Shown: in pieces, positions 2,729 to 37,551 of the stretch
Layout of the letters: every line of letters starts with the position of its first letter
Numbering within the stretch: the stretch's first letter is position 1
Translations under genes and position numbers: made by a program
The notes under the pieces: generated by a model
Databases searched by the model: none
Seen by the model: the letters and a program-made list of their open reading frames with translations, nothing else
Told to the model about the DNA's origin: nothing
Source of the DNA: Seison nebaliae
Lineage: Eukaryota
Assembly (NCBI GenBank): GCA_023231475.1
Contig: JALJEE010001519.1
Span: forward strand, 1 to 37,551
Length of the DNA: 37,551 bases
Reading direction: 5' to 3'

Positions 2729-3169
2729 GGAAGAAATGAGAAATTTAAAATTTAATGATAAAATTTCTACTCCACAAAATATCCAAATTGATTTTGTAAT
2801 AAAAGAAGAAGATAATTTATATATGAAATTAAAGAAAAATATAATCAAATTAAACGAAGTGAAGGTAATTGAGAAAGAGAAGTTTGTTTTGATGATGATA
2901 TATGGTGTAAATTGATGTAATACAAATCATGCTTTCGATGAAGAAGTCATGATTCAAAAACCATAATGACAATTTCACACTGTGAAACATAAACGAAATT
3001 AGAAGAACAATAGAAAAGTAATGGTGAATCGATTTATTTTTTAAAAATTCTTGATGAAATTAAGTGAGAGTTAAGTTAATTTTGATTGTTAGAGAAACGG
3101 TAGATAAGGTATCGAATTTGAGTTTGATAGAATGAAATGTCGAATTTCTTTTTTCTTCTATTCTAATTT

Positions 3170-3460
3170 CGTCCGGAAACGGTAAATCGTCAAGTTCACG
3201 CCGATTCCATTCCACCAATCTTCTTTCACGACCTTTCAAATGGCCAGTAGTTCTCTGGGCTTTGGAATCTCTCCTCTCTAGGAAACAGGGGCAAGACCGT
3301 TCATTTCATTGATTGGGTATCCTTCTTCGGTCTTGCCCCAAGTCGGGTACCATCGGAACAATGAAAAAGTGATGGACCGATGGTACCCATTCACCCCATT
3401 TCTCACTACCACTAGTCATTCCAACGATATGGACGATAACTAGTGGTATGGAAATAAACG
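3170..3460. ncRNA. Candidate structured non-coding RNA, family unknown (minus strand slightly favoured)
   Basis: Perfect stems 3288-3299/3328-3339 (12 bp), 3345-3356/3377-3388 (12 bp), 3407-3416/3439-3448 (10 bp), plus 3203-3209/3263-3269 (7 bp), in a GC-elevated island with no ORF in the track. Confidence 0.5.
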
Positions 3461-3539
3461 AAATTATAAAACTTTCTTCAAATACTTATTCATAGTATAA
3501 TTGTCTCTTCAATTTATACACGAAAAGGATTAGCGCAAA

Positions 3540-3666
3540 AACTGAAATTTTCAGTTACAACAATGAACATTTACTCAGTTCGTTTGACGTGTCAATTTGT
3601 CATTGGCTAAATTAAATATACAACTAAAATATGTCAAATTCAACAAATAAAATGACGACACGTCAT
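3540..3666. promoter_or_regulatory. Cluster of TGAC...GTCA inverted motifs and a CCAAT box (minus strand), possible promoter
   Basis: TTGACGTGTCAA 3584-3595, ATTGG 3602-3606, ATGACGACACGTCAT 3652-3666. Lies upstream of the hairpin island on the minus strand. Confidence 0.22.
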
Positions 3667-3974
3667 ATTAGTCAGAGTTTGACAAGTAATAAAAATTGAC
3701 CAGTTGTCTTACATTTTCAGACTCAATTTCATTTTTATCCTTCCTCACATCGTTAAAAGATCGAAATCGTTTCTTTTTTTTTACTGCACGAAAAGTGCAC
3801 AAAAAATGCACGAAATTTCAATTTTTTATGCAAATCGTTGGAATGATAATAAAGACAGAATTCTTAAGATTTTACGATAAGACTATTCAATTAGCCTTCT
3901 CTCAATTTATATGTATGATAAAAAAATTAATAAATTTATTTTTCTTATTAAATGTTTTTCTGTCGATCCGTCTC

Positions 3975-6900
3975 TTATTTGACCATTTGCGACGTTTTCA
4001 TTTGGAGGACCATGATCACTTTAGACAGGTTGGATAATTCTTCTAGAAATGTGATGATAATGAACAACGAGAAAGTGGAAAATGGAACCTGTTGTTAGAC
4101 TTTGATTATTCTGCAATTTACTAATATCGATCTTGTTAATTAAATTATAAAAATCCGTATTGTTATTCTGATGTTCGTGATTGGTGGGCGTGGTATGATC
4201 ATGAGCATGAGAAGGAGGAGATGTTGACGATTGTTCGGTGATGGAATTTCGATTCGTAATAATTAAAGAATCATCATCATGACTCTTCTGATGACGGTGG
4301 AATAATTTCTTCAAGAACGGTTGTTGTTGTTGTTGATCAATATCGTATCGTTGAGATTTAAATTCGTTATCGATTTTATCAATGGAAATATTGTCGATTG
4401 AAGATTCGCCATTTCTGCCCGATTGATGGTGATCGGATTGTTTAAATGAGAAATCAAGTTCCAAATCGAATAAGGAAGTTCGACTATTATTCTTCTCGTT
4501 TACATTCCTCAAATTGTGATCGTTCGGTTGATGATGATGGTGGAGATGATGGTTGTCATTGGAGGAGCATCGATTCTTCGAACTACCGAGACTTCCCGTT
4601 CTTAATCGCCGCGCACCAGATTTGATGAAGGATTTGATGGAGGACGTTCTCGTTTCTTTCAGTTTCACTTCATTCTGATTCGTCTGATTCGAATGATGAA
4701 GTGATGTGATATTAGTAACGGAATTCGCTATCAGTTTCGGTTTGACTGTAGCTGAATTTTTAATTGTCACATAACTCGACGTCAATTTACTGCCAGCAGG
4801 TGGAAGAGTGGATTGGACGGTGGAACTCTTATTCTCCACGCCCTCCACCTCCTCCTCCCCACCACCGTCATTCGTGTTAATGAGACGGTTTTGAATATTC
4901 TTCAAAAAATTCGTCGATAAATAAAGATTGGGATTTCTAATACGCGTCAATGATGATGATTTCGTTTTCTTCAAACCACTTCCCTCATTACTGACGATGG
5001 GTGGACATTCATAAGAATTTTGATTTTCACTCAATGAAAAACGAATTTTTTCTTCTTTTCTCTTATTTGTCCTGGTCGTCTTTTCTTCTTTCTTTTCTCC
5101 TTCATTAGACGTCATTTCTTCTTCTCTATTCTCTGGTTCATATTGATAATGATGAACAATATTTTGTTGTTGTTGTTGTTGTTGTTTGAGAGAATGGGTG
5201 GTCGATGATAGATGTTGAGACCAAGAGCGACGTCTCATTTCATCTAAGTCGATTTTCTTTTCATGATCATTCGACTTTTGTTTCATGCAATGATCCATAT
5301 CAGAAATTAAAGCCGACGTATCAGTATATTCATATTCCACATGAGACACTTTATTCTCGATCGGTATCGAACAAAGATAATCATTACTATCATGATAACA
5401 TTGTCTCTGTCGTTTCAATTGACTTCCATTCATTTTGTTCATTTCGAAATTATCGTCGATATCCGTATAAATTCCTGTTTGAACGATCTCCTCTTTATTC
5501 TCCAACTTCTCATCGAATTGATAATCAACGTCATTCGTCGTATTCAACTCACTCAATTTATTCGACTGACTCTCATTCGATATTTTACTGGAAAGGATGT
5601 CGTCCGAATTCGTCGAATGATACGCCGAACTTCCACTACTATTCTGACGGATAATCGCATGTTGTTCATCACACAAATTCCCACGACCAATACTCAACGT
5701 GTCCAATTGGGTGATAGGCGCCCGAATCTCCTTCTCCAATTTGAAGAAGATAGTCAAATCCTTCTCCGATTTCAATGTACCGTTCTCCGAATGAATATGA
5801 TAATCATCCAACATTCTTCCGTCACTTCTTCTCGTCTCCTGATGTGACATGGAAATGGGAATCATCTTCTCACCATGCTCCCCACCACAAACATAACTAT
5901 AAGTACAATCGTTCGACGAATCGGGAAATTTCTTAAGCGCGACCGATCTCGTCCTAATCTTTTCCATTTCATGATCAACGACGAAATCGGAAATTTTCCG
6001 TTTTCTTTCCTGACTGATGATTTGGAGGAAGTGATTGAACAGATCCGTTTTCAATCCCTCGTTCTTCTCCGATCGATAAACGGAATTATCAGAAAAAATC
6101 TGAAAAAAAAATTTTAATTTTAATAATTTTTAATTTAATTTCAACGAACTTCCATTTCATAAGTCAAATCGTTTTTCAGGAATAGTTTGAACACTTTCCT
6201 CTTATCCATTGACACATGTTCAATATCGCGATTCTTAAATTGGAAAAAAAATGATGGAAAGAGAAAATGAGAAAAAACTTCGATTATGGTGTGGAGATGG
6301 TTGGACGATAACCGTTTCAATGGTATGACGAGGATGAGAATTCGATTGCTGAAGACGAGTAGTCGTCGTCGATTCTTTCCGTTGAATTGTCGCACGTACA
6401 AATCGTACAATAATTCGTTATCATTTTGAAGGAAACTGATGAATTTGTTTGACGTCTCATCAATTCGATGAGTGTTCGATGGCGATTGAACGTGACATGA
6501 ATAAGAGTAGAGGAGAGATTCTTTCGTCTTCTCGGAATGACACGAGAAGAAGTCATTCCAATTACGCTTGTGGAAATACATAGAATCATAGAACGATTGA
6601 TGATAGTTGCCATGGCAACGACAGCTAACTTCACTTCCATCAGATGGAGCGATCAATGTTGTTGGGAGACGTACATCATATTTCTCCAATCGATAATTAT
6701 TTAAATAATGACAACGTACTTTGATCTGATGGAAATTGTCGGAGACTTTCTCGTTCGTCTTTTTCAGTTTTATATACGTTTGTAACACGCCGGAATAAAC
6801 GGCGGCGGTGCAATGCCATTTGGAGAGTTTATAAGGAAAATCGGAAATTTGTAACTTTTTATGAGCCTTCCTCTTATGTCGTCTCTTCTGCTCTTGTTTC

Positions 6901-7373
6901 TGCTGTTGATATAACTTCATAATTTTCGATTCTCTCCTCATCAATTTGATGATTTGTTCGAACGTCTGAAAAAAGGATGACGGCCATTCTATCACGTTCA
7001 ACCAGATACATCTCAATTTCTGGATTTCATTCATTGGCAAGATATTATCGATGAGGAATGAAAAGGTCGAATATTTGGAGGAGAGGTCGATCGTCAACGA
7101 TTCCAATGGATCGATCTGCTCATTGAACCACATACAAACGGTGGCAATACATCGTTTCTTACTGGCTGATTGAAGGACGTTGAAGAGATCGAGTTGCATT
7201 TGCGAACATCGATGGAAGGAATGAAAGACGTTTGGCAGGAGATTGATGAGATTAAATTTCTCGATCATCTCATAAGCCATTCTCATAATCTTTAGTTGTT
7301 TGTGTTGTTGTTGGAGTAGTTGTTGGAAGAAACTATCCAATGGCGAACGAGTTTTCACGTCGTTCATATTCAT
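3975..7373 (-). CDS. Degenerate DH/PH (RhoGEF-like) protein with a long low-complexity C-terminal half; exons 7373-6279, 6233-6150, 6099-4089, 4042-3975 (start uncertain)
   Basis: ORFs 6141-7373 and 4021-6054 join in phase through a 50-nt GTT-AG intron (6149-6100). PH-like RRRLLVFSNRILILV strand preceded by a helical DH-like block. A final 46-nt intron (4088-4043) gives the helical end TEELSNLSKVIMVLQMKTSQMVK*. The gene is well supported, the domain call is weaker. Confidence 0.6.
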
Positions 7374-8815
7374 CCTTCGACGAATTAGTCTCTTTTTTAC
7401 ACTTCACTCACACAGTTCGAATAAAGTACACTCACTTCTTAATGTCTCTCCACTTGAAAAGTCTCACCAATCAATCACTTCGGTGGGATTGATAAAGAAG
7501 AATTAATTTAATTTTTTTCGATTGTTGTTGTTGTTGTTGTTGTGAATGTCAGAAAGAAAAGAAGATGAAAATGAGATTGGGCAAAGGAGAAAAGAATGAT
7601 GTCTGAATAGTGCTTTGATCGAAAAGAAGAGAATTTACATGCGAGAAATAATCGGGAAAGTTTTATAACAATCTTTCCTCCAACTTTCAATTTGAATCGT
7701 TCGATCGTCTTCCCAATTCTCAATTTTAATCTCATCCTCATCATCCTCATCATCATCATCATCTGGATGATCACCACCATCATTACCATTTTAAATGGTA
7801 ACCGTTTTAATAATAATTCTCATATTAATATTTTCCTCATTCATCAATTCATTACTGGATTACATAATCGATTGATAAGGTTGATTGATTAATCAGGTCA
7901 GTTCTAACCGATCTTCAATCGAAAATCAATCGATCTCATGAAAAGCTTCGCTGTTCTATGCGTCTTTCTCTTAATTACATACGGAAGCAATTTGATCGAT
8001 AAGAAGATTTCCATTTCACATTGAATCTGTCTTCTTTCTCTATCGTTTTTCGTGTCTTACTCTCATCACAACCTCAATTTCCACCGTCGTCACATGATAT
8101 TTTAGTTACGAGTAAATTTTAGAGATAATAATTCGATTAGATATCTACAAATATTCTTCTTCTTCTTTATCTTTCAAAATTATTTCAAATAAACTTTTCA
8201 CGAACACTCCCCGAAGAAAACACCTCGACAAAAATAAAATCGAACCGGATCAAATCACCTCCTGTTTACATATAATTGATTAATTAGCAGTTATTATTTT
8301 TAAGATTTTTTTTCGAAGTCAATTCGAAGGAGGAGGAGGACGACGAGAGGGAGGACGAATTGATGATAATCAATTTACTTAAACGAAAAAACAACTTCTC
8401 CCCTCGAACGGGAAAGGTTAAAGGAAGAGACTGATAAGATGTTTGTCTCTTTCGATCTGATTTCATACTCGGCAAGGTTAGATAACAAACCCACAAATGA
8501 TGATATCACATGTCACATTAAAAACCGTTATTGTGGTTACTAGCTGACAAAAGTGCTCGCCGTCTCTCCCTTCCTCCCCACCGCAACCACATGTCGGGAC
8601 AGTTACGAAAAAGATGAGATTCGTCTCGTACATTCATCATGAGACAGAGATGTCGAGGAAGAGATACACGAAACTTTCCAATATCTAATAGTTAACTTGC
8701 TAGCTCACGTTTTCGAGATGAGCTAACTCTAAGTAGCTAGATAGTAAGTTATAATTGAATATTTCACATATTCTTCCTTTCGATTAGCGCTCGCGCGTTA
8801 TGTCAGAATATATCG

Positions 8816-10892: not shown

Positions 10893-13670
10893 TTAGTAAC
10901 GTGCACTTCGACGATTACCTGTCGGATTGGTGTTGGGATTGTTGGGCCGATAAGCAGAGATGTTACGACCGATACGTCGATTGCCGAATCGATTAAAATT
11001 AATTCGATTCGTTTGACTGGTTGCTGATGCTGAACCAGTAATGGTATTCATGGGCATGATGGGAGGATAATTGGGTTGTTGGAGGAAATGATGTGACATC
11101 GATCGACTGGCATTTGATGGTTGCATCATGTGCATATCATCATTCATTGGCATATGACGTTGTGAATTCATCATGGAAATGGCAGCTGATCCCATACCAG
11201 TTGATGGCATTGATGAGTATGGCATCGAAACGCCGGAATATTCATTGGCATTATTCATCATGGCAGATGTGCTATCGAACATAGGTGACACATTGACATT
11301 ATTCGCTTGTTGATTAGTATTAACGGCGGGATAATTTGTTCGCATATTTCGATAATGAGAATAATTGATCTGATCAATCGGCATCATTTCACTCACTTCC
11401 ATCTGATCCTCCATCATCTCGTTAGTGGAATAAATGGAATTGGACAATTTATCATTTTGACCCGATTTCATCGCCATCGATTGATCAGACATCATCGAAC
11501 GATTACCATTATTACCATATATTCCCATTCCTGTCATTTCATCCATCGATCGATTCATAGTTGAATGATTTTGAAAATTATTATTTCCATTTGGATTATT
11601 ATTATTATTATTCGGATTATTATTATTATTATTATTATTATTGTTGTTGTTGGCACTTGTTGAAGTGGATGATGAATTCATAATATCATCCACATCATCA
11701 TTATTTGCATTCATCATCACATTATTAGCATTGGTCGATGAATCATTCATCATCATAAAATTATAATCCATTTCCGTTCTCATCGGATTGGACATGGGAT
11801 TAGTATTACGATAAAATCGATTATTTTGAATCATTTCCATCGGATACATTTTATTATTAGGTGCTTTCTTCATAAATTTCATTGTGAATTTATTCGCGTA
11901 TGACGTGTCGATGTTAGTCTCATTTCCATTCATTTTCTTATCGCCCAAAATCGAACGAATTTGTTTCTTTACCATCGAATGTAAATCTTTAATTTCATGA
12001 CGCATTTGCATCTGTAACGACTTCTCGTGTTGATCACATTGTTTCCATCGAAGTGCCACACCATAATTTCCGTCATTCTTCCTTATCCAAAAACCATACG
12101 AATGGATATCGTACGCTTTCTTCGGGAGGCCACTATCGATATTAGGGAATGATGATTCGTCGGCTATCTCCGCCCAAACTGGTCTTGTTCTTGACATGAA
12201 TGATGGATCGAGTATTGTTTGATTTGAATTCTTATTAATCGGATGTGATTGTGAAATGGGGAAAACGAGTGCGCCCAAATTAATTCGCTCGATAATTTTT
12301 GATGCTGTATGTTTCGAATCGACTTCCACTAACGCCTCGCCACAACTCTTTCCACGCTCGTTAGTGAGGACGATGGCTCGTTCGATCATCTCTTCGGCGA
12401 TACTTCCGTTAATTTGAGTCATATCATTTTTGGCGTCGGGAAATTTTTTGATTTTTTGTTCTCTCATTTTTTGAAAAACGCCACTCGTCGAATTGGATGG
12501 ATGACCGAGCAAATATGCCGCACAACTAATCAAAGCATTCCTCAACACCTCATTATTGACATGATGTGGCACATGTCTCAATCTCACCATACATTGACCA
12601 TGAGAAACGATACGAATGTGCAACGATTGTTCCTTCATATACACCGTCGATGGTGTTGAATTGGGTAATGATGGTGGTGGTGATGTTGATGTTGATGTGG
12701 ATTCTTTCGATTCCTCCAGTTTTAAATCATCTTCATCTAAACTAATATTCAATTCTTTCATCTTTTTGAATAATGTTTCACGTCGTTCTCTCGTTAATCG
12801 ATCCGGTTTCTCACCATCATATCGATCCATGATGATTTCGGCACCTGCTCGACTTCCCATCATAACGAAAGCTGATCCACGATTCGTATTAAATCGGATC
12901 CATTCAACTCCACCATATTCCAACGTATATTCATCCAATAAATATTTCAAATCAACAATCGTCCAATCGTGGGGAAGATGTTGAATATAAATCTTTCGAC
13001 GGCTCCACAAACGACGTTGATCATTTTCTCGAATTAATTGACTCCTCTCCCAAAACACGACGTCATTCGACGTATTCATCGGTCGATTTGTCGGTCGCAT
13101 TTTCACTTTCTTATTCAAATTCATCTTGTTATTATTATTGTTGTTATTGTTGTTGTTAGTTGTAGTGGTGGCGACTGGTGGTGGTATAGACATAGATGAT
13201 ATCGATGGTTTTATGGCACCGATAGTGACGCTTTTCTCCACAGATTTCTCCACGGATTTATCCAATCGCTTCTTCTTCGATTGATTATTCGTCTCATCGT
13301 CATTTACTTCATCGTCATTTATCTCTTCCGTCACTTCATCTTCTGTGGCAACGAGACCATTCGCGTCGTTCTTGTTGAACGTCTCGTCTAATTCCAAACT
13401 ATCGTTGTAAATGTCCTCCATCTCTCCTGACGAATTCAACGAATTATTATACACGTCGGCCACACACTCTTCCACATTGGCACCGTTCTGATGCATGACT
13501 TCCTCATCTCCTCCCGTCTCTCCTTCCTCTAACGACTCAGACTTATTGTCGCCTTCATTCTCCTTCTCTTCCATTTTGGACGCACTACGTTTCATGCCGC
13601 TGACAGGCGACAACGGCTCCTTCTTTTCTATCTTAGTAATCGGCTCACTCTTCGGCACTACTTCGGACAT
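10893..13670 (-). CDS. DBHS-family (NONO/SFPQ/PSPC1/NonA-like) RNA-binding protein, single exon, 925 aa
   Basis: RRM1 (RKIYIQHLP...GSAFVMM), RRM2 (VRLRHVPHHVNNEVL...IERAIVLTNERGKSCGEALVE), NOPS-like RPVWAE...DSGLPKK...YGVALRWK, a coiled coil, and C-terminal NRRSARY resembling the DBHS KRRRY NLS. Confidence 0.85.
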   Translation of the reverse strand: MSEVVPKSEPITKIEKKEPLSPVSGMKRSASKMEEKENEGDNKSESLEEGETGGDEEVMHQNGANVEECVADVYNNSLNSSGEMEDIYNDSLELDETFNKNDANGLVATEDEVTEEINDDEVNDDETNNQSKKKRLDKSVEKSVEKSVTIGAIKPSISSMSIPPPVATTTTNNNNNNNNNNKMNLNKKVKMRPTNRPMNTSNDVVFWERSQLIRENDQRRLWSRRKIYIQHLPHDWTIVDLKYLLDEYTLEYGGVEWIRFNTNRGSAFVMMGSRAGAEIIMDRYDGEKPDRLTRERRETLFKKMKELNISLDEDDLKLEESKESTSTSTSPPPSLPNSTPSTVYMKEQSLHIRIVSHGQCMVRLRHVPHHVNNEVLRNALISCAAYLLGHPSNSTSGVFQKMREQKIKKFPDAKNDMTQINGSIAEEMIERAIVLTNERGKSCGEALVEVDSKHTASKIIERINLGALVFPISQSHPINKNSNQTILDPSFMSRTRPVWAEIADESSFPNIDSGLPKKAYDIHSYGFWIRKNDGNYGVALRWKQCDQHEKSLQMQMRHEIKDLHSMVKKQIRSILGDKKMNGNETNIDTSYANKFTMKFMKKAPNNKMYPMEMIQNNRFYRNTNPMSNPMRTEMDYNFMMMNDSSTNANNVMMNANNDDVDDIMNSSSTSTSANNNNNNNNNNNNPNNNNNNPNGNNNFQNHSTMNRSMDEMTGMGIYGNNGNRSMMSDQSMAMKSGQNDKLSNSIYSTNEMMEDQMEVSEMMPIDQINYSHYRNMRTNYPAVNTNQQANNVNVSPMFDSTSAMMNNANEYSGVSMPYSSMPSTGMGSAAISMMNSQRHMPMNDDMHMMQPSNASRSMSHHFLQQPNYPPIMPMNTITGSASATSQTNRINFNRFGNRRIGRNISAYRPNNPNTNPTGNRRSARY

Positions 13671-13758
13671 CTTCCAACAAATTTATTCGTGAAAAAAAAA
13701 ATTCTCTCGTGTAAATTTCTCTTTAAATGAATCTACTGTACTACTTGGTTTGGTTGAA

Positions 13759-14722: not shown

Positions 14723-17700
14723 TCATTCGTACAGACTGTTCTGAGAGGACGTCGAATAAGACAAATTGAATTTGCCTTGTTTCTTCGTTATCGGTTTGTA
14801 TCTGGGCGAATTGAATTGATTCTCGTCCACTTTCTCGTCAAACACTTTCATCTCTTCTTCTTCCTCCTTCACTCGTTTATCGACACATCGTTCTTCACCT
14901 TGCAAGATCAGGAGAGAATTTGTCGATGAAATATTTTTTAAATAATTTAAAAAAAGATCATCATTTCCTACCACTTTCTCCGAACATCGTCTCATTCGAA
15001 TGTTGTTGTTGTTATTATTATTGTTGTTATTATCGTTTTGTGGTGTATTGACTTTGAGTGATTGGAGTTGTTTCGTTAACATATTCTGCTGATAGAGATT
15101 AATAGCATTTTTCTCGATGTTCATCGATAACAAATCATTCCAGATGTGCATAAATGATGATTCATTAGGTAAAATTTGAATTTGAAAAAAATGGACGGAA
15201 TTCAAACAACAAGTACTGTCTTTGCAGGATTTCAATATTGGAATGGTGGTAAATTCGATATGATCTCGTTTGTTTGTTTCCCTCATGAAAATCTCTCTCA
15301 TATCGACGAATGAGACGATTTCGTATTTCTGATTGAAACGTTTATTATTATTATTATTGCCCATATCGAACGAGATCGATTGGACACTATTCGACGATGT
15401 TCGTTGACCGACTAATGTGGAATTTGTGGAATTGATGGATGATCGATTACTACCGTTCTCTCCCGTTTCGGATGATGCAGCATTAAACGCATTGAAGAAA
15501 TTGTTGGCGGATGTACAAGCGGCGATGTTCGATGGTGACAATATTGGTGGTGAAGTCATTTGGGATGGTATCGGTGAAATGATTTCTTTAGATTTCTGAT
15601 AATTCAGTTGTTGTTGTTGATTGTCGATGAGTTGAAGAAGTAGATGAATGATTTCCGGATCGACATTCTTCAACGTCTTCACATTGTCAAAAACGATATT
15701 ACTATTCGATTTGAAGATATTTATCAATGAATTGTCCATATTTAACGATTTCACAAAATTCACTAAATCTCTCATATGAACACTCTCTCCAGTGCCACTA
15801 ACTGCCCACACTTCTCTCGGCGATAAATGACGAATCAAACTCGACCATTTATTGTCTTTAATCGAATGATTCTTCAATAACTCGTCAATTTCCATTCCAT
15901 GATTCGGTTCCGATTCCTTCTTCAATTGATTAATTCGATAAACGTAGTCATTGTAGATGATGGCACTACCACTACTTTTATGTTTCTTTAACGGTTTCGT
16001 AATGAGAAGTTGATTATCGAACAAGAATAATTTCTTCAATCCTTTATCGTCACATGTTAAATTATCGAAAAATTTCAAATTCGCCAATTCCTCCTTCTCG
16101 TCCATGGAGATGTTGAGATAAATGGATTTTTGAGAGAATCTCCTGAATGAACTTTTCTTCCTGATATTCGAATGTTTGAAAAGTGTCTTTGATTTATCCT
16201 TCTTGCTCATTTGTAATGATGGTGCATTTAATGCTGTGCGATAGAGACTCTCTCGAAAGTCATTTAATGATTTTGATGAATTCTCATTCAAACAATCGTC
16301 ATTGATAGTGAGTGGAAGTGATTGACGGAAAGTGGGATGATTTGTCATTTTTGATCTGAAATCATTATTGAACAACATATCACCATAATATGATTTGGTC
16401 GTCATATAATCGAAGAAAGAGACGTGATCTTTATGATTGTCTCTCGTCCGATATTTCATCAGATTCACATCTCCGAAATAATATAATCGTCCCAATTCCT
16501 TCATATTCTTTTTGAATTCGTTATTGTTATGACTCTCCTTATTGTTCGAATAGAGTGAATAGATCATTTGGGCGGAATCGATCGCTTTCACAATCTCATG
16601 AATCGTCAATGACGCGTCTAACAGAATTGCCTTTTCATTCTCATTCTTCGTATTCTCTACAATCGACTAGAAAAAAATTTCGATTAGAAAAATTTAATTA
16701 AAATTTATTATTAAAATTAAAAATTAAAATTTATAATTAGAATTTATAATTAAAATTTATAATTAAACTTTTAATAATAATTGATATTTACCGATACGTT
16801 GAATTGGTTGTACGAGTACGTGAGATAATGAGAATAATTTTCCAATTCTTTTGCGTGTATGAGGAAAATAAGAATTCGATTCACAATACGTTCTCCAAAA
16901 CGAATCGGCCAGTTTATGGTTGAGGAGATAATGTAGATAAAGTTCGTATAATTCCTCTTTCTGTCAAATAAATGAATAAATCAATTAATAATAATAAGAA
17001 TAAATAGAAATTTAAATAAAAATGAATTAAACGTAAAATATGAATGTGTGAGCGATGAGACCAGGAATGAATGACGCTAATCGAAGAACCGGTAAGAAAA
17101 CGGTCGAATGGAAAAGATAAATCTGTTTCACGTTACTGAACAGAAGATACATGTTCTCGATGATTTCTGGTGATTGACAATCGGCTATTTGTTTCTCATA
17201 ATCCTCGACAACTGATTGTAGTTCGTTAATGTACGTTCGTTCCGTATCTAGAATCTCTTTGATGGCGTGAAACCGTTTGTCGTTGTTCGTCGTCATTATA
17301 CCGAGGAAGATGTTCGTTGTCGTCAATTCGTCATTTGTCTGGTTGTCGGTGAAGGTGGTTGAGATGGGGAAATTATGCCAGAAGACATTCAACTTCAACA
17401 CCAGTAATTGGAGCTCGTACAAATGGAGGAATGTGTTAGAGGAGAAATTTGAATTTAATAATTCTAAATATTTTCGTTGGATGTCAGTGATGAGGAAATA
17501 TGATTTAAATTTACCGAAATATGTTTGGAGGATGGATTCGAGTTCGGTGTTTGGAAGGAATCGTTGAACGATATTCCATATATGAATAAATAATTCATCA
17601 ATTAAATCATCATCAGAATCGTGATGGATGGAATTGAATTGATTATATAGATCGAGATTAGAGAAGATTAATCGATAATTCTCCGTCATATGTTCGGACG

Positions 17701-20700
17701 ATAACAAATTCGACAATTTCGTTCCGTAATGTTGCGCCACGTATTGATGGAGTTTGATATGATATATGATGGATTTGAAATCGATGAGGAGATCCTGTCG
17801 ATTATCGTTCAATAGATCAATGAGTGAAATTGGCATTGTAGTATTCATCGATTCTTTCATAATGTCTTGTGTTAACCATTCGTCACAATGATGAATGGAT
17901 GATGAAATTCTCATATTAATCATATTCAAATTCCAATGGAAAAATAGATCGCCAGCGATGACGTCCAATTCCTCCACTTTCGGCACGAGACATTTCCCTC
18001 CCATCAACATATGTTCCTCCAAATGTTCTTTATGTTGAACGAGATGTTGTTGATCAAATTGAGGATAACGTTCGTTCATCACAGTTAAACAATATGAATT
18101 CATTTCCGTCAACGATATTTGATGGTCATTTTCCATCTCTTGTTTCATGTTCAATCGAAGAACATTTAACGCTTTTCTCGGATATCGATAATCTCGTCGT
18201 TTCTGATGACTTTGATCAATCGGATGAGAATCGATTGATGGTGATCGATTGGATGACGAACAAATCGATTCGTTCAATTGATATGATTCTCGATTAAGAT
18301 TTGTGATGCCACTGTCATTGGTTACTTCGCCGGAATTGATGGACGGATCATAATAAGGTGATTCATGTGAATGTGACTCGAAAAGAAACGTCATATCAGT
18401 CGACGGAACTTTACAACGATAAATGAGACGGATTCCATCATTCGCCAATTCCTCTATCGATTCGATCAATTCTGAAAAATTCTCTCGCAATTTCTCATAT
18501 AAATCATTACGATGGAAAATTGACATGGAGCTGGCAGTAGATGTGGCTGTAGATATGTGTTTTTTCAAATCATCAACTTGTCTTTGGATGGATTTGAAGG
18601 AATTTTCAAATTGACGACTACTACTAATGAAATGGAGATATCGTTGCATGTCATTGGAGAGATAATTGACATAAATCTCCAGACCGATAACGGAAGCTTG
18701 TATCGTTTTAATTTGATCAGCGGCGATAATTGTTCGTTTTGGCTCGTTCAATTTCTGCAAATGAAAAACATTCAATTTTTCATGTTCAAATGTATTGGAT
18801 AAATTCAAATTTAAATTTCGATCGATTTCTGTATATTGATAATTATTATCTTCATCCACATCCGCCAACGAATTTATCCACGATTTAGTGTATGCGTATT
18901 TATCGATATTATTATCATTGGGAGATGACTCATGTTGAACGATATGTAATGACGATGATTGATTCACATTAATATTCTTATTTGACATTACCGGTGTCAT
19001 AGGCGAAGTGGCATCGTCATGTAACTTCATCAACAATTGTAACATACTCGCACTGAGAACGTCGAGATTGTTGAGATTGTCGATGACAATTTTCCTTTGT
19101 TCTTCAATGAATGTCATCCATTCTTTAATTTTCAATATTTGAGATAATGTCGATGATGATTTATTCATAATCGTCGTACACGTATCACTCATATTCTCAC
19201 TATTGGATGTGACTCCTGAAATGGTCGCTCCTCCATTTGTTGTCGTTAATGTGATGGCCGTTGGTGTTTTGATGGTTGATGGTGAGAGAACGGTTTCCGT
19301 CGTCTCAATTAAATCGTTTAATTCCGAATGGAAATTATTATTGATCATCTCCTCTTTGATCTCAACAAATCGTTTGCACAAATCATTCACTTCACCGATA
19401 CATTCACCAACACATACGTGCAATCTGTCGATAGCTGATTGTTGTTCTAACCATTCGCTGAGTGTCTTGTCGCCGTATTGGAGAAGTTGATGGAATTCCT
19501 GTGCATTTCTCGTTAAACGATTGACGAATTCGCGAATATCTCGATATTGTCGAATCTGAGGAAGATAAAATAAAATTTTGAATAATTTTTAAAAATTTCT
19601 TAATAATTTCTAACATTAAATGAATAATCGAAGGAAGTGAAACATAATTGACGACGGAAATTCGAATAGAGAGTCACCGGTTGAATGATGAAAACTGATC
19701 GGATGATATGATGATAATACTTCTGGAGTAATTGGAGCAATAACGTCACGTTGTCCCAATCACCATTACGACGATTAATCACGGCAATTATCTTTCTACC
19801 TTCGTCATTGTGTCGGGCAGATTTTGAGTGACCATTTCTGGGATATAAACAGAAATTTGTCGTCTCGTTCAATTTGGAAATGAAATAATTTGTGAGTAAT
19901 TGATAATAATTGACGATTTGACGATGGTCAATGAAATGTTGTGTGAAATTATTCTCCTTAATCTCATCATCGTCAATCACGTCATAACTGCCAATACTCG
20001 CCTTCTTCTTATCGTACTGATGATGATGATGATGATGATGATGATGGTTATGTTGTTGGTTGCAGAGATTATCGTCGTCACTACCATCCGCCAACATTTT
20101 CCAAGCGAACTTCCTCAAATATTTCTGGAAGATTTGCGACGAATAATTCTTCTTTGTTTCCGTCTCGAAAAACATCTTGACGAATTTCTCTTCCACCTCT
20201 CTCAATTTCTGTTTGGTGACATCGGAATAAATGATGGCGGGAATCATTTCAAAATCGTCGCGCACAATTCGTGCACTTCTCTCATCATTCTTCTCATCGT
20301 CTCCATCTGCGTCGATTGTCTCCGCTTCGTTATACTGATCGTCGATCATCGTCGTCCTCTTCGTTATGGTGGTCATTGTGGCGGAGATGTTGTTGGTCGA
20401 TGATATATCCACTGATGGTTTCCCAACCAGATGTTTCGCCAACGATTTCGAAGTGAACAAATTAAGGAATGTTCCCTTCAACAAATTCGATCGACTAAAT
20501 CTTTGTTCATTTGATTGTTGTTGTTCTTGTTGTTCTTGTTGCGACTGCTGTTGTTGTTGTTGTTGTTGACGTTGTTGACGTTGTTGTTCTTCTTCTTCGT
20601 CGTTCACATTGAATTTATCAACTACATGAAAGAAAGTTTGAGTGAGTGAATGAATGAGAAGAAAAGAAAAGTTAACGGAATGAAACGGAAACGAGTTGAT

Positions 20701-23383: not shown

Positions 23384-24745
23384 TTAGTATTCATCGAAAC
23401 CTGGCATGAAAAATTGCTTTGCAAATTCATTAACCTTTCCCTTCAATTCCTCAATTTCTTTTATTGATGTGGAACGAACGAATTCTTTAAACTTCTTCGT
23501 CGTTAAGACGGTGTCGCCTGTATTTGCCTTGGCAGCATCGTCTTGTAATCGGAGAGTGAGTTCGATTGCTTCGTGTACGAATCGAGCCACTTCACCGAAA
23601 TCGTTTTTCTCAAGTTTCCTCGACGTCAACGCAGAAGTTCCGATTCGAATTCCACTCGGTTTCAACGCGCTCTTGTCACCAGGACACGTATTTTTATTGA
23701 CGGCGATTTGACACAATTCCAAAATGAATTCAACTTTCGCTCCATCCGTTCCCTTATTTTTCAAATTTAACAACATTTGATGAGTGTCTGTGCCACCAGT
23801 GACGATATGGTAACCGAATTCGATGAATTTCTCACAAACAAATCGTGAATTGTCGATGACTTTTCTTGCATAAACTTTCCATTCGTCACTCATCACTTCT
23901 TTCAATGCCACACCGATGGCACTGATGGTGTGATTGTGAGGACCGCCTTGTAAACCGGGAAAAACGGCAAAATCGATTTTTTTCGATATCTCTTCATTCT
24001 TACTGAAAATGATGGCTGCACGTGGTCCTCTTAATGTCTTGTGAGTAGTAGTCGTTATTACATCGCAATAATCGAATGGATTATTTACTAATTTTGCTGC
24101 CACTAATCCACTCACATGTGACATATCCGCCATTAAAATACTTTTGGATTTTGTAGCGATTTCTTTGAATTTCTTATAATCCAAATTCCTCGAATAACAA
24201 CTAATTCCAGCAATGATGAGTGTTGGTCGATATCTCATAGCCATATCTTCCAACCATTCATAATCGATTTCTTCCGTTTCCAAATTCCGTTTATATGGCA
24301 TCGATTCAAAAAAGATGGATGTGGCACTGATCTTTTTATTACCGTTATAGAAACCATGAGAGAGATGACCACCGTCTGATAAATCCAATCCCATAATTCG
24401 ACCATGAACTCCAACGAGTGCCGTATAAACGGCAAAATTGGCTGGTGTTCCCGAAAGTGATTGAACATTAACTTTCCATTCATTACCATCAAGATGGAAA
24501 GCGGATAATGCTCGTTCTTTCACTAAACTTTCCATTTCATCAACAAATTCCGTTCCACCATAATATCGATTGCCGATAGTGCCCTCACTATATTTATTGG
24601 AGAAACAGGAACTTTGTGCTTCGAGAACTGCGCGTGAAGCGAAATTCTCCGACGAGATCAATTCAAGACCGTTCTTCTGTCTCATTTTCTCCTTCATCAT
24701 AATCTCGTACATTTGTGGATCGGCATCCTTCAAAGTCGTTGTCAT
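23384..24745 (-). CDS. SHMT: Serine hydroxymethyltransferase, probably cytosolic, intronless
   Basis: LELISSENF, NKYSEG..GNRYYGG, GGHLSHGF, ADMSHVSGLVAA, PLP-lysine motif TTTTHKTLRGPR, VFPGLQGGPHNH. First ATG at 24745; the ORF-track start at 24778 is a TTG. Confidence 0.97.
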   Translation of the reverse strand: MTTTLKDADPQMYEIMMKEKMRQKNGLELISSENFASRAVLEAQSSCFSNKYSEGTIGNRYYGGTEFVDEMESLVKERALSAFHLDGNEWKVNVQSLSGTPANFAVYTALVGVHGRIMGLDLSDGGHLSHGFYNGNKKISATSIFFESMPYKRNLETEEIDYEWLEDMAMRYRPTLIIAGISCYSRNLDYKKFKEIATKSKSILMADMSHVSGLVAAKLVNNPFDYCDVITTTTHKTLRGPRAAIIFSKNEEISKKIDFAVFPGLQGGPHNHTISAIGVALKEVMSDEWKVYARKVIDNSRFVCEKFIEFGYHIVTGGTDTHQMLLNLKNKGTDGAKVEFILELCQIAVNKNTCPGDKSALKPSGIRIGTSALTSRKLEKNDFGEVARFVHEAIELTLRLQDDAAKANTGDTVLTTKKFKEFVRSTSIKEIEELKGKVNEFAKQFFMPGFDEY

Positions 24746-27164: not shown

Positions 27165-27390
27165 TCGCAAATTTTTTTTCCCGTTTTTCTTTAAAAAAAA
27201 CCATCAAAATTTTTTTCGTTTTTAATTCAAAAAAAAAAACCATCAAAATTTTTTTTCGTTTTTAATTCAAAAAAAACCGTCAAAATATTTTTCCTTTTTA
27301 ATTCAAGAAAAAAACCATCAAAAATTTTTTCGTTTTTAATCCAAAAAAAAAACCATCAAAATTTTTTTTCGTTTTTAATTCAAAAAATTT
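27165..27390. repeat. About 37-40 bp AT-rich minisatellite, 5-6 copies (AAAAAAACCATCAAAATTTTTTTCGTTTTTAATTC)
   Basis: Direct tandem repeats differing mainly in homopolymer length, between DGAT1 and the next gene. Confidence 0.9.
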
Positions 27391-27559
27391 GGGATTTTAT
27401 TTTCGTGGGAAATGTTTGAGCGAAGGGATTGGGAAGAAGAAAAAATTGATAATTTTCATAATTCTTAACATGATTATTTTCACGATTATTTCCTTCTCAA
27501 ATGATTACTATCACTTTTTTTTGTGTGTTCCAATATAGAAGTTCACATTTCTAGGAAAC

Positions 27560-29162: not shown

Positions 29163-30162
29163 TTATTTCTTGTATTTCCCACTATGTGTTTGGTAGACGT
29201 CCATAGTTTTCGGATGTCGATATTGGATCTTCATCGTTTTCAACGTAATCCAATTCTTTCTATAAAGATGCCAAAATGCACCCATAATAATGGGAGCGAA
29301 TAAAAGTAACTTGAAATTAATAAATAATTAATTAAAAAATTTTTTGAAAAAAATTAACTTTCAATCCCATTAATTTCCTCTTTTCTAATTCCGGTTGTCC
29401 GGTCCAAGTGAGAAAAGCGGAAACATCTTTCGCCATTTGACTAATTGAAGCTTCCGTTCCTTAAAAAGAAAAATAAATTTATAAAATTAGAAAATATGAA
29501 AATAAATTTATAAAATTAGAAAATATGAAAATAAATAAAAAAAAACCATCAGAATATTCGATATGTTCATCAAATATCGGTTGCGCCATACTAATGTTGC
29601 CACCGGGGAAATATGGATTGAAATGTTGTCCTTCAGGAACGTCATGTCCAGCTGGTGCGTCCATAAATCCGTTTAATAAAGAGAAAAGATAATTCTCGCC
29701 ACCATGTCTCGCCAAAGTGATGTAAGTGAGATCTGGTGGATAAGCTCCGTTATTTGCTGCTCTCGCTGCTTCCTCGTTCGCATATGGAACTGGAAATTTA
29801 TCTGAAATTTTTCCTGGTCTCTCGAACATTTCTCCCTGATCATTAGGACCGTCAGTGACTTGAATATCTTCCGCTTCAGTTTTCGCTTCATCGGCCGTAT
29901 GAGTGACATTGATCAATTCTCGATAACGAACATATTCCAATGAATGACAAGCGGCACAGACTTGTTTATAGACTTCGTAACCACGACGGAGGGAACGATG
30001 ATCGAATGAATCGAACATTCCTTTGTGTGGCCATTGGAAGTCATGTGGTGGATGAACTATCAAATCGCCCGCTTTCAACGGTTCTAATAATGCGGTGGCT
30101 GATATAGCCGCCGTTCCCATCATACCGGCGATAGCACATCGATAAAATAATTTCGATGACAT
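29163..30162 (-). CDS. CYC1: Cytochrome c1, heme protein of complex III; exons 30162-29547, 29459-29359, 29309-29163
   Basis: [16 protein letters not shown] (CxxCH), [39 protein letters not shown]-terminal TM helix. Two GTT-AG introns (87, 49 nt). Confidence 0.97.
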
Positions 30163-31520: not shown

Positions 31521-32644
31521 TTTGTCTTTCTTCTTTCCTTATTACTTATCTTTATCTGTCCTTCCTCCCTCCCCTAACCTCTCCACACAACACAACACGA
31601 CACACAATATACAGAATTTATCTTTGAACTCTTGAATCAATTTGATCTTGTTAACATTTATTACATTTCATAAAATTTTCTTTTCTGTTTCCATTTGTCA
31701 TCCCTATCATTTGTTTATTATATAAAGTTTTCAACTTACTCCCAACTTCTTAGAACTGATGGTGATGATATTTGTGACTATCGATCTTAAAGTTTTTTTC
31801 CCACATGTTAATCTCCACAATCCATTCAATTACTAATAATTACTTTTAATTTTTAATCAGAATTTCATAGAAAATTGAATTTCTTCACATTTTCTCATTT
31901 GAAATCTTTAGCTTTTACTCATTTCCTTCAACTCTTTAAATTTCTCAATTTTTATTTTTAATTTCTCTTCTCAACAATACTATAATTCAAATTAACATTA
32001 ATCCAATTCGTTTCTAACAACGTTCTCCAGTTAAATGGGAGATAGTTTCATAATGGATAAATCATCAATTTTTTTCAGATATCTTTAATTAATTTAAGTT
32101 TAATTAATTTAGGAACTAATCATAATATAATTACACCCTAAATAATTTATGAATTAGAGTTGATGTTAAAATTATTTGAGAAACATTCAAAAAGTTTTGT
32201 GAGTTAATTCCATTCATATCCACATGCTTAACCTTCTCAACATTTCACCGAATTCTTTCAGTAATTTTCATGAATAACAACTGTTTTAACTTTTCATTTA
32301 TTTGGGAATACGAAAAAAACAAAAGGTTCATGTGTTGAATAATTAATAAACCTTTATCAGCTATTTGGATATTAATTAACCATGTTATTGCACTCTGACA
32401 TTTCTTTCCTCCACAACCTCAGTTGAATCGGGTTTATTATTAAATATTTTTATTAGTATGAAGAAAAACATCTTGAAGAATCGCCTCAGTTGAAGTGATG
32501 GTTTGAAGTGAAATAAAATCTTAATTAAAGAATTGGCAGAACAACAATAATCGCTCGATTCGTTGCTTATCTTATTGTTCGTTTTAGTTGGGATAAATGG
32601 AATAATTCCCATCATCAGTTATTTTTAATTTTTTCATTCTTTCG

Positions 32645-34660
32645 TGAATTTAACGAGGTTTGGTCGATATTCGGTTTCTTCAGAATTGGAATGATTTTGA
32701 AGAAGAGCGAGATAGAGGAGAACTGATGATGAGAAAGAATAAGATTTACGGAATCAGTAAGGCCGGTTACGAGAGATGGAAGTAAGTGTTGCACCAATTT
32801 AATGCAAATATTATCGAAACGGTGAGCCTTGGTACCGTCGAGAGTCTGGATAGATTCGAAAATTTCTTGAGGAGTGAAAAAATCGAAATGGACATTGACG
32901 ATAGGGCAGACGTAGGGTATGATGAAGGTACATATAGGAGCCGAAGTATTCCACGAAGGAGTCGCCAGAAATAGAAGGTGTCGATGAGTTGGAGAAGCGA
33001 TTAGTTATTAATTTCCAAATATTCGAAGGATGAGACGAAAGGCACGCGTTACGGAGCCTACCGTGAAAATGATCCCTGACACACTTTCTCACGGTTCTGC
33101 GGAATAATTTCCGAGATTTTAGATGGAAATAGGAGAACGAGAAAATTGTAGACGATGGGAAAAAGTGGTAGATGACCATTTGGCAATAAAGAGTAACTGC
33201 TCAGTAGGGGAGAGATTAGTGTTCATACGCGTAAAGGAAGCATTATGAAGAATTACTTGTTGATGCAAGAGAGGGAGTTTACAATAGTGCTTGCAGGTAA
33301 TGTTACGCGGAGTGGTATTTGGCGAACTCAAGGCCATGGGAGTGGGACGGGAAAAACTGGAGATGATAAGGGAGATAGGAAGGTGGTCGTAAAGAGATGA
33401 AAGGAAAGAATCTAATCTAACTAATGATGAAATGATCTATCCATGAGCATGTGATGTGAAAGTGATGGAAGATGTGGAAGAGAGGAAAACGGAAAGACGA
33501 TTGGATTCAAGTGGATTCAATTACTGAGAGAGAGGAACAGAAACCTGAAAAATCACTCGGTCGAAGGTAGACATTGAAACATAGGATATTATGGACGGAA
33601 AAGCAGACTACATCCATTGATAGTTGGGTGAATGAAGAGGCATGGAGATCATTAGAAATAAAAGTACATAGACCACCGGAAGGTCGGCCAGAGCCATTAT
33701 CAGAATCGGGGGAGAAGCGGAGGTACTGAAACATCGATGATCGGCCACTTCTAGCCAAGCTGGTTTCGAACCCACGAGCCAGGTCTCCTGACAGAAGATG
33801 ATGTCATAACCAGTGAGAGAAAGGAAAGTGATATTACGGATATCGGTAGAAACGACAGAAGATGTAGATCCTTTTGTGGAAGGAAAGGAATTATGTCAGA
33901 AAGAGGTGACAGGATCGGACATAGTTGAGTCAATTGAAGAAGAGTTATTCGAGGTGATGACTGAAGGAACGCATTTCTTGATAGAGGTTGCGTGATCGTT
34001 GAATTCGATACAGCGATCGCGCAGAAAAACGTTGGCGGAAGAAGAAAAATAGAAGGGACGCACGTAAGTGTTTTGCGGCCAGATCTTCGATTCGAGGAAA
34101 TCCTTCCATTTCTCGACAGAACAGCGAATGATGAAGGAGCGAGGAGTCGTTGGAATTTCGTCCCGAGAATCGAAAGTGGATGAGCGCTCCTATTAAGAGG
34201 AGTAGAGATGGGGATCGAGGACTCATTGGTTCTCTATTTGAAGGCATCTCGGTATGTAATCTTTCTTTGATCGCGAGAATTCGTGCCTTTTTCGCAGATT
34301 TGGGAATTATTCGTTTTATTGTCTTTCCCAATGATAATTTCCTGGTTAGCTATAATGATCTTTAGGAAACTAGCGATTTCTTCCAAGAGGGCGTGTGTCT
34401 TGTTGGGTAACGCGAGGGAATCGGTGAATGATGACATTGTCTCTTTTAACTGAGACATCATTTGGACGTTTCAAACTCTCTTCGGAACGGAGTTCTTGTT
34501 CAGATTCTTCTTTTTGTTGGTGGATGAATTGGCGGACGGACTGGGGGGTCCAGGTCGTTGGTGGATTAGTTGGTGATTGGCGGTGATCGGTGGGTTACTC
34601 CTTGGATCGAGGCATCGTTAAGGAGGCCTGAGCACGCGGAGTTGTTGGGAGATGTACTAT
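32645..34660 (-). mobile_element. Decayed non-LTR (LINE-like) retrotransposon: ORF1 remnant, APE endonuclease, start of RT; frameshifted and 3'-truncated
   Basis: Minus-strand peptides in shifting frames: DIIFCQETWL (about 33775-33810), GRPSGGLCTFI, FNVYLRP, SWIDHFII (about 33425-33450), YDHLPI (about 33374-33391), IWKLI, KAHRFDNI and IIPILKKP (about 32671-32697). Upstream coiled-coil ORF ending ITYRDAFK. GC content above the flanks. Confidence 0.85.
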
Positions 34661-37245: not shown

Positions 37246-37551
37246 GGGGACAGTTCTACTCCTTTACGAGTTCTACACCCTAGTAAAGGAAAAACGGACA
37301 GATCTACTCCTTCTACACCGGACAGATATACTCCTTTTTCGAAAAATTCGGACAGATCTACTCCTTTTTCAAAAAATTCGGACAGTTCTTCTCCTTTTTT
37401 TCAAAGTTCGGACAGTTCTACTCTTTTTTCGAAAAAATTAGGACAGTTCTACTCCTTTCTTCAAAAAATTTCGGACAGTTCTACTCCTTTCTTCAAAAAA
37501 TTCGGACAGTTCTACTCCTTTTTCGAATTTTTGGATAGTTCTTCTCCTTTG
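37246..37551. repeat. About 30-32 bp tandem repeat (CGGACAGTTCTACTCCTTTTTCAAAAAATT), 9-10 copies, runs to the right edge
   Basis: Head-to-tail copies with a conserved GGACAG(T/A)TCTACTCC core and a variable T/A tail. Confidence 0.93.

Follow-up and report, generated by a model that had tools for sequence, protein, structure and literature searches.

What might a cluster of perfect hairpins in AT-rich intergenic DNA of Seison nebaliae encode? The cluster (positions 3170-3460, hereafter the island) lies in a 37,551-nt stretch of contig JALJEE010001519.1, which was analysed at its full length and which we call the window. An earlier note read the island as a structured RNA, either a strongly diverged form of some known class or something new. 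Our analysis supports the first of these options and lends no support to a new class: the locus is likely to belong to the RNase P/MRP family, and we lean towards the narrower reading in which the island and its flanks together form a divergent nuclear RNase P RNA of ∼470 nt with an expanded specificity domain. The predicted gene probably spans ∼3074-3545 and so runs past the boundaries first drawn. RNase P and MRP had been set aside by eye because only the inside of the island was inspected, whereas the candidate diagnostic regions lie outside it (Table 1).

Table 1. Coordinates of the hairpin island and of the predicted RNase P RNA elements
Feature	Position	Strand	Remarks
Predicted RNase P RNA gene, ∼470 nt	3074..3545	+	Ends inferred from weak P1
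P1 5′ strand candidate	3074..3084	+	5 bp with 3536-3540; after a bulge, 3 bp with 3541-3543
P2 5′ strand (predicted)	3084..3095	+	3091-3095/3504-3508, 5 Watson-Crick pairs; extension 3084-3088/3510-3514
P3 candidate	3098..3142	+	Internal loop rich in purines, between a 7-bp distal stem (3110-3116/3123-3129) and a weak proximal one
CR-I / P4 5′ strand (predicted)	3141..3152	+	U3147 bulged; first base C, not G
P7 5′ strand (predicted)	3164..3172	+	9 Watson-Crick pairs with 3458-3466; island-closing
GAAA-tetraloop hairpin, 3 bp	3173..3182	+	P8-like position
Alternative hairpin	3234..3267	+	Favoured on + over the 3203/3269 stem; 3′ side partly retained in second contig
H1	3288..3339	+	12-bp stem; placed in the expanded specificity domain
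Invariant H1-loop stretch, 17 nt	3300..3316	+	Changed at 0/17 positions vs 13/28 other compared loop positions
H2	3345..3388	+	12-bp stem
H3	3407..3448	+	10-bp stem with inner 4-bp stem; no counterpart seen in the second-contig comparison
P7 3′ strand (predicted)	3458..3466	+	Partner of 3164-3172
CR-IV, 8 nt (predicted)	3494..3501	+	AG-N4-AU; P2 begins 2 nt downstream
CR-V / P4 3′ strand (predicted)	3518..3532	+	Exact pattern match
T4 run then CAG	3548..3554	+	Directly after P1; Pol III stop or 3′ splice site

Structure, copy number and conservation of the island

Every stem arm and loop named earlier was found in its place when checked against the sequence. When the 55 perfect stems of at least 9 bp in the window are ordered by length and GC, the top two places go to H1 and H2 and the sixth to H3. 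GC content is 62% in the arms, 34% in the loops and 27-28% in the flanking gaps. The lowest + strand folding energy among 249 pieces of 300 nt belongs to the piece starting at 3151 (-91.4 kcal/mol), a narrow lead over the next (-91.1), and the shuffled z-score proposed earlier as a check came to -5.21 on the + strand and -5.25 on the - strand, none of 200 shuffles being as good on either. A 9-bp helix absent from the earlier note (3164-3172/3458-3466) encloses the whole island with a probability of 0.97 and was equalled in 48 of 4000 random pieces. Of the smaller structures, the 3203/3269 stem drawn earlier stands on the - strand (pairing probability 0.67) and falls on the + strand (0.0), where another hairpin is favoured, while the GAAA-capped hairpin reaches a probability of 0.03-0.06. 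Judged by their G-U pairs, H3 and one inner helix would be better suited to a - strand RNA. The hairpin cluster is a real, selected structured element.

The many dispersed copies that would mark a transposon fragment were not seen in the runs examined. A single unbranched contig covers the island in X1 and X2, as it does in all four runs over 3140-3700, and points to a single-copy element; no second copy at equal depth aligned at 80% in the four runs over the same interval. Word depth, which is no measure of copy number, is about half as high for the contig bearing the island (2734-6300) as for several others (7.3 vs 13-14 and 14.9 vs 26-30; runs X1 and X2).

Two of the four runs (X4 and X5, one sample) also contain a second contig (510 and 386 nt) at a depth of 2.8-3.5 vs 15, and its comparison with the window covers 3269-3359 together with the 30-letter ends. 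There are 11 differences in the 91 positions of 3269-3359; the seven that are listed all fall within 3317-3328 and none within 3300-3316, and the other four lie near the ends. A 30-letter end of the contig matches 3360-3389 gap-free with nine differences, seven in the H2 loop, one in an H2 arm and one outside, the H2 loop differing at 7 of 17 compared positions and its 3′ arm at 1 of 12. For the unchanged 17-nt stretch of the H1 loop Fisher's test gives p = 0.0006, the block having been picked after seeing the data. Loops changed more than arms, at 13 of 45 positions as opposed to no more than 6 of 48, with p ranging from 0.07 to 0.001 according to the placement of the four unlisted differences; the two stem changes located face 3299 and 3350. 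It appears from this comparison that the H1 and H2 stems and one loop stretch are under constraint and that the remaining loop parts are free to change.

A second lineage is a plausible source of the low-depth contig, since S. nebaliae has been reported to comprise two strains that differ in abundance and in GC and share 82% mitochondrial identity, and its host also carries a second seisonid (PMC8351084); a paralogue or low-depth errors are the alternatives. The H2 arms had no match in a metagenome pattern scan, and the invariant loop word matched 14 viral and 26 metagenome loci, with flanking similarity in none of the 40. The cytochrome c1 of the window is identical to a record from S. nebaliae, and other relatives of the window genes in the protein collection are distant (best other SHMT 58%, cytochrome c1 72%).

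The tertiary contact proposed earlier between the H1 and H2 loops fared unevenly. The 8-nt complementarity of 3304-3311 and 3359-3366 is present, but a loop-loop kiss is unsupported because the second contig alters three of the eight positions of 3359-3366, two to mismatches and one to a G-U pair, with 3304-3311 intact. Such complementarity arose in 188 of 5000 base shuffles of both loops, in 53 of 5000 random window pieces and, for any of the three loop pairs, in 154 of 5000; it is weak evidence, a 1-4% chance event.

Candidate RNase P elements around the island

A scan with motifs of 25 families gave no match inside the island and an exact RNase P CR-V at 3518. The basic descriptor (CR-I, CR-IV, CR-V and a P4 of at least seven of eight pairs) has a single match in the whole window on both strands, and this match brackets the most stable island. 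The pattern of conserved regions was checked on data. Rfam, applied to 20 loci, verified 15 of them as RNase P genes; all 15 were found, none of the five loci without an Rfam match and none of 40 unrelated loci passed, and 96 of the 122 fetched loci passed, Rfam verification covering 20 loci. The control set is prokaryotic (bacterial or archaeal) only, and 14 archaeal genes were aligned solely to read conserved regions. In its spacing the window match lies inside the control ranges or next to them, with CR-IV to CR-V at 24 nt (mostly 17-27 in the controls), a P2 offset of 2 (0-2) and a distance from P2 to CR-I of 46 (45 in E. coli).

Chance matches were counted both with and without regard to location. 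For the basic test, 17 of 5000 local shuffles of 2900-3800 were as good, and with location ignored 59 of 300 whole-window shuffles gave a match. Once P2 and P1 were added, 11 of 20,000 shuffles of the flanks and 21 of 600 shuffles of the whole window passed; the strictest level, which asks for P7 besides P2 and for control spacing, was reached in 8 of 800 whole-window shuffles and by 10 of 15 controls. These p-values are optimistic, because the match came after 25 motif families had been tried and the descriptor was extended post hoc; the case rests on the match bracketing an independently flagged, conserved island.

The predicted elements differ widely in how well they fold. When all CR-I-like sites were compared with all CR-V-like sites, those at 3141 and 3518 paired at seven of eight positions around a bulged U, the P4 helix being mostly A-U and G-U with one U-U mismatch. 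The enclosing helix, placed as P7, starts 11 nt after P4 and has a probability of 0.82-0.97; P2 reaches 0.95 with CR-I, CR-IV and CR-V held unpaired and 0.05 in the free fold. The P3 candidate has a probability of 0.01-0.04, and its location between P2 and CR-I fits. Pairs can be drawn for the P1 candidate, at an ensemble probability of ∼0. A 7-bp hairpin at 3540-3556, directly 3′ of CR-V, competes with the predicted P1, and could be a 3′ trailer structure. Seven CR-II-like and five CR-III-like words occur, none flanking a P12 inside P10/11; CR-II/III are absent or too diverged for placement.

With nuclear RNase P RNA (RPPH1/H1, Rpr1; RNaseP_nuc) the predicted RNA shares the order P1-P2-P3-CR-I-P7-[S domain]-P7-CR-IV-P2-CR-V-P1 (P1 and P3 as candidates), a P4 pseudoknot with a bulged U, an 8-nt CR-IV, a P7 set off from CR-I, and a single-copy, intergenic gene. 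It differs in its length of ∼470 nt, with a 285-nt S domain, in its AU-rich P4 and weak P1 and P3, in lacking P19 and any placeable CR-II/III, in its internal T6 and in matching no covariance model. Archaeal type A/M RNase P RNAs (controls L041-L112) have the same CR-IV/CR-V spacing without P19, a GNRA-capped first hairpin and the same P4 register, but their P4 and P1 are GC-rich and their CR-II/III clear.

The Rfam check proposed earlier gave no credible match for the window or the region. Six scans of either, whole or in halves, five of them with E up to 10, held no RNase P or MRP match, and the best E value, 0.007, belongs to an lncRNA model that has no structure and whose cut-off is 70 bits, the match scoring 14.7. 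Also against an RNase P identity are the weak P1 and P3, the P2 probability of 0.05 in the free fold, the AU-rich P4, a CR-I that starts with C, the G-U pairs that suit the opposite strand, and the unplaceable CR-II/III, regions called universal in RNase P RNAs by PMC4919922. In its favour are the single copy, the stems conserved in the second contig and the lack of codon periodicity.

The protein side is equally mixed. A BUSCO table (PMC12256650 supplement) scores RPP29 as complete for Seison, and an RNA-based enzyme is therefore to be expected. The same table scores POP5, RPP30 and RPP21 as missing, which we count against the RNase P reading; these absences may reflect divergence, because RPP21 is also missing there in most rotifers. 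POP5 is present in 22 of 22 free-living rotifers of the table, whereas Seison and the two acanthocephalans are scored as lacking it, and the protein side of RNase P/MRP may have changed in the Seison/acanthocephalan branch.

Should the locus encode an RNase P RNA, the island would be the enlarged specificity domain of the S. nebaliae nuclear enzyme, and the flanks would carry CR-I, CR-IV and CR-V in RNase P order and spacing. By analogy with the family, P4/CR-V with RPP29 and other proteins would bind catalytic magnesium ions (PMC4919922 places the metal ions of catalysis at P4 with CR-V), the RNP would cut the 5′ leader of pre-tRNA, and P1 and P3, being weak and AU-rich, would depend on protein for their formation. 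Most speculatively, and as the step of which we are least sure, H1-H3 and the invariant H1 loop would replace the CR-II/III T-loops as a platform for protein or substrate.

Rival identities of the locus

The strongest rival is RNase MRP RNA, which combines the same catalytic domain with a hairpin-rich second domain without T-loops and would cut pre-rRNA and other single-stranded RNA. All catalytic-domain evidence for RNase P is also compatible with MRP. The island RNA further shares with RMRP and Nme1 an apparent lack of CR-II/III (unplaceable here, and lacking in MRP RNAs according to PMC13184271), several radiating hairpins and a GAAA-type first loop, the hairpin past the junction carrying GAAA at 3176-3179, four of five letters and thus one base short of the MRP GARAR pentaloop. 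MRP RNAs are also those most often missed in invertebrates (PMC2770079). The distinguishing marks given in PMC13184271 are, for MRP, a strict 6-nt CR-IV, a 3-bp P5 beside CR-I, a GARAR pentaloop and no CR-II/III, and for RNase P an 8-nt CR-IV, a P7 further off and CR-II/III. At this locus there is no 6-nt reading of CR-IV (no AG-N2-A in 3467-3504), a 9-bp P7 stands 11 nt after P4 in place of a 3-bp P5 adjoining CR-I, no GARAR pentaloop is closed by a stem, the sole exact GARAR word (3363) lying in the variable H2 loop, and the MRP CR-I word is absent at two mismatches. Two of the three RNase P features and one of the four MRP features are thus found, and we therefore hold RNase P to be the somewhat probable identity and MRP a doubtful one.

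A lineage-specific structured RNA of 303 nt, read from either strand of 3164-3466, with a terminal stem of its own to close it and serving as a protein scaffold via the invariant loop, would make the RNase P-like flanks a chance product of AT-rich DNA. The conserved GC-rich part does stop at the terminal helix, Rfam offers no match and the other families tested do not fit, and a - strand RNA would suit both the G-U pairs and a CCAAT/ATF-like/TATA set upstream on that strand. We nevertheless judge it improbable: around the island stand five elements in order and spaced much as in the controls, an arrangement that 11 of 20,000 flank shuffles reproduced, and no terminator, Sm, C/D or H/ACA end signal occurs at 3164 or 3466.

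Very little probability remains for a cis-acting structure on the - strand, whether it belonged to the GDP-mannose dehydratase transcript, as part of its leader or first intron, or to the upstream gene, as part of a long 3′ UTR. Both neighbouring genes are on the - strand, and the window's sole CCAAT-N9-ACACG (3606) and the TATAAA at 3518 point into the island, but the dehydratase start is 1 kb away, the island lies past the other gene's likely poly(A) signal, and the + strand elements would be left unexplained. Least credible is a mobile-element relic or a group of inverted repeats that arose by chance: small DNA elements typically have perfect inverted arms such as those seen here, but one unbranched contig in four of four runs with no equal-depth copy at 80%, and arms that change less than loops, largely refute it.

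Other identities were tried and set aside. For spliceosomal snRNAs, U3, U7 and box C/D RNAs, the motif scan of 3100-3540 found no box D, U2 or U5 word and no Sm site inside the island, and it likewise spoke against U1, U6 and snoRNA readings; a U12-donor look-alike at 3317-3324 falls among the positions changed in the second contig. Animal telomerase RNA is marked by a template, a pseudoknot, CR4/5 and box H/ACA (PMC8480181). The locus has no TTAGGG template, in a search that assumed this repeat although it may not be Seison's, and its only pseudoknot candidate is the unconserved kiss. The helix 8 motif of SRP RNA and the GAUC motifs of 7SK were not found, nor was an exact hammerhead core; none of 43 HDV-like loop candidates combined P1, P2, P3 and the GG linker, and ARAGORN found no tRNA. 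Seison has 29 annotated precursors of long-loop microRNAs, and none of nine short island words occurred in the Seison rows among those listed (PMC12553114 supplement). A coding exon fits neither the differences over the three codon positions (4, 5 and 7) nor the ORFs, which span only 22-37 aa. A YCAY cluster is no mark of the island either, since 66 of 746 pieces of the window have as many such words. On the - strand, RNase P gave two 7-pair combinations, only with two CR-V mismatches or within H3, and none passes the full test.

Transcription, setting and meaning

Runs of T on the + strand comprise T4 at 3080, T6 at 3149, T4 at 3548 and T9 at 3774, and the T6 run (3149-3154) begins inside CR-I, the 5′ strand of P4. 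Once it had read through T6, Pol III would not be halted by a T4. Because the T6 lies inside P4, normal Pol III transcription of the predicted RNase P RNA seems unlikely, although this is the inference of which we are least sure; the arrangement hints that Pol II may make the RNA or that termination may need longer runs such as the T9. The T4 after P1 can also be read as a Pol III stop. Pol II-made RNase P RNAs are described for insects and crustaceans, and Pol III signals for the molluscs and annelids examined, in PMC4287351. With the intron-embedded genes of insects and crustaceans the predicted gene shares an internal T6 that Pol III is unlikely to pass, and flanks that are donor-like (GTTAAG, 3070) and acceptor-like (TTTTCAG, 3548-3554), words that are common on the + strand of the window (21 and 8 copies); unlike those genes, it has no evident + strand host gene.

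The island is intergenic, with a GDP-mannose 4,6-dehydratase gene (Pfam) on one side and another gene on the opposite side, both on the - strand; two long frames of 702 and 420 aa at 4021-7403 (-) have no Pfam match. The interval 3513-3665 holds the window's sole CCAAT-N9-ACACG (- strand, 3606), inverted GACACGTCA-type sites at 3585 and 3657 and, overlapping the predicted CR-V, the TATAAA at 3518; a third GACACGTCA-type site lies at 11901. We take this set to resemble an ER-stress/CREB3-type promoter, which presumably would fire antisense across the RNA gene toward the dehydratase.

Elsewhere in the window, all eight exon ends picked by eye on the basis of reading frames, at predicted junctions, are followed by GTT (six GTTA, two GTTT) and not by GTA or GTG; the introns in question lie near 1420, 1679, 25352, 25662, 28251, 28440, 28622 and 29547. 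Such donors suggest a changed U1 or U6 in S. nebaliae, with no tie to the island: the link to the splice code considered earlier found no footing, since the motif scan placed no U1, U2, U5, U6, Sm or box D motif usably. Long intron-free frames encoding SHMT (23384-24742), an RRM protein (10893-13682) and a RhoGEF (14723-19588), all on the - strand, adjoin genes with many short introns. Frameshifted frames at 32600-34600 (-), of higher GC and with words that we take to be LINE-like endonuclease and reverse transcriptase, are probably a decayed retroelement. Short tandem repeats were seen by eye at 27180-27400, 29470-29530 and 37300-37551, and the contig terminates in one.

If the locus is what we propose, it would provide an RNase P-family RNA for a syndermatan. 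We found no RNase P RNA gene described from a rotifer or syndermatan in the mainly open-access literature searched. The gene would have escaped Rfam through a catalytic domain that has drifted towards AU and is interrupted by a large insertion. An RNase P RNA free of T-loops would directly probe whether animals can do without the module that reads the tRNA elbow, and where the difference between P and MRP lies, and the internal T6 makes the choice between Pol III and Pol II testable beyond arthropods. If it is merely a divergent housekeeping RNA, the value lies in annotation. More tentatively, and with no great likelihood, a P-type catalytic domain may sit on an MRP-like second domain that has lost the CR-II/III T-loops, by which every other RNase P RNA reads the tRNA elbow, and has three GC-rich helices and an invariant loop instead, with a shift from Pol III to Pol II independent of that in insects and crustaceans. 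If so, a single RNA would perhaps serve both functions in a gene-poor epibiont.
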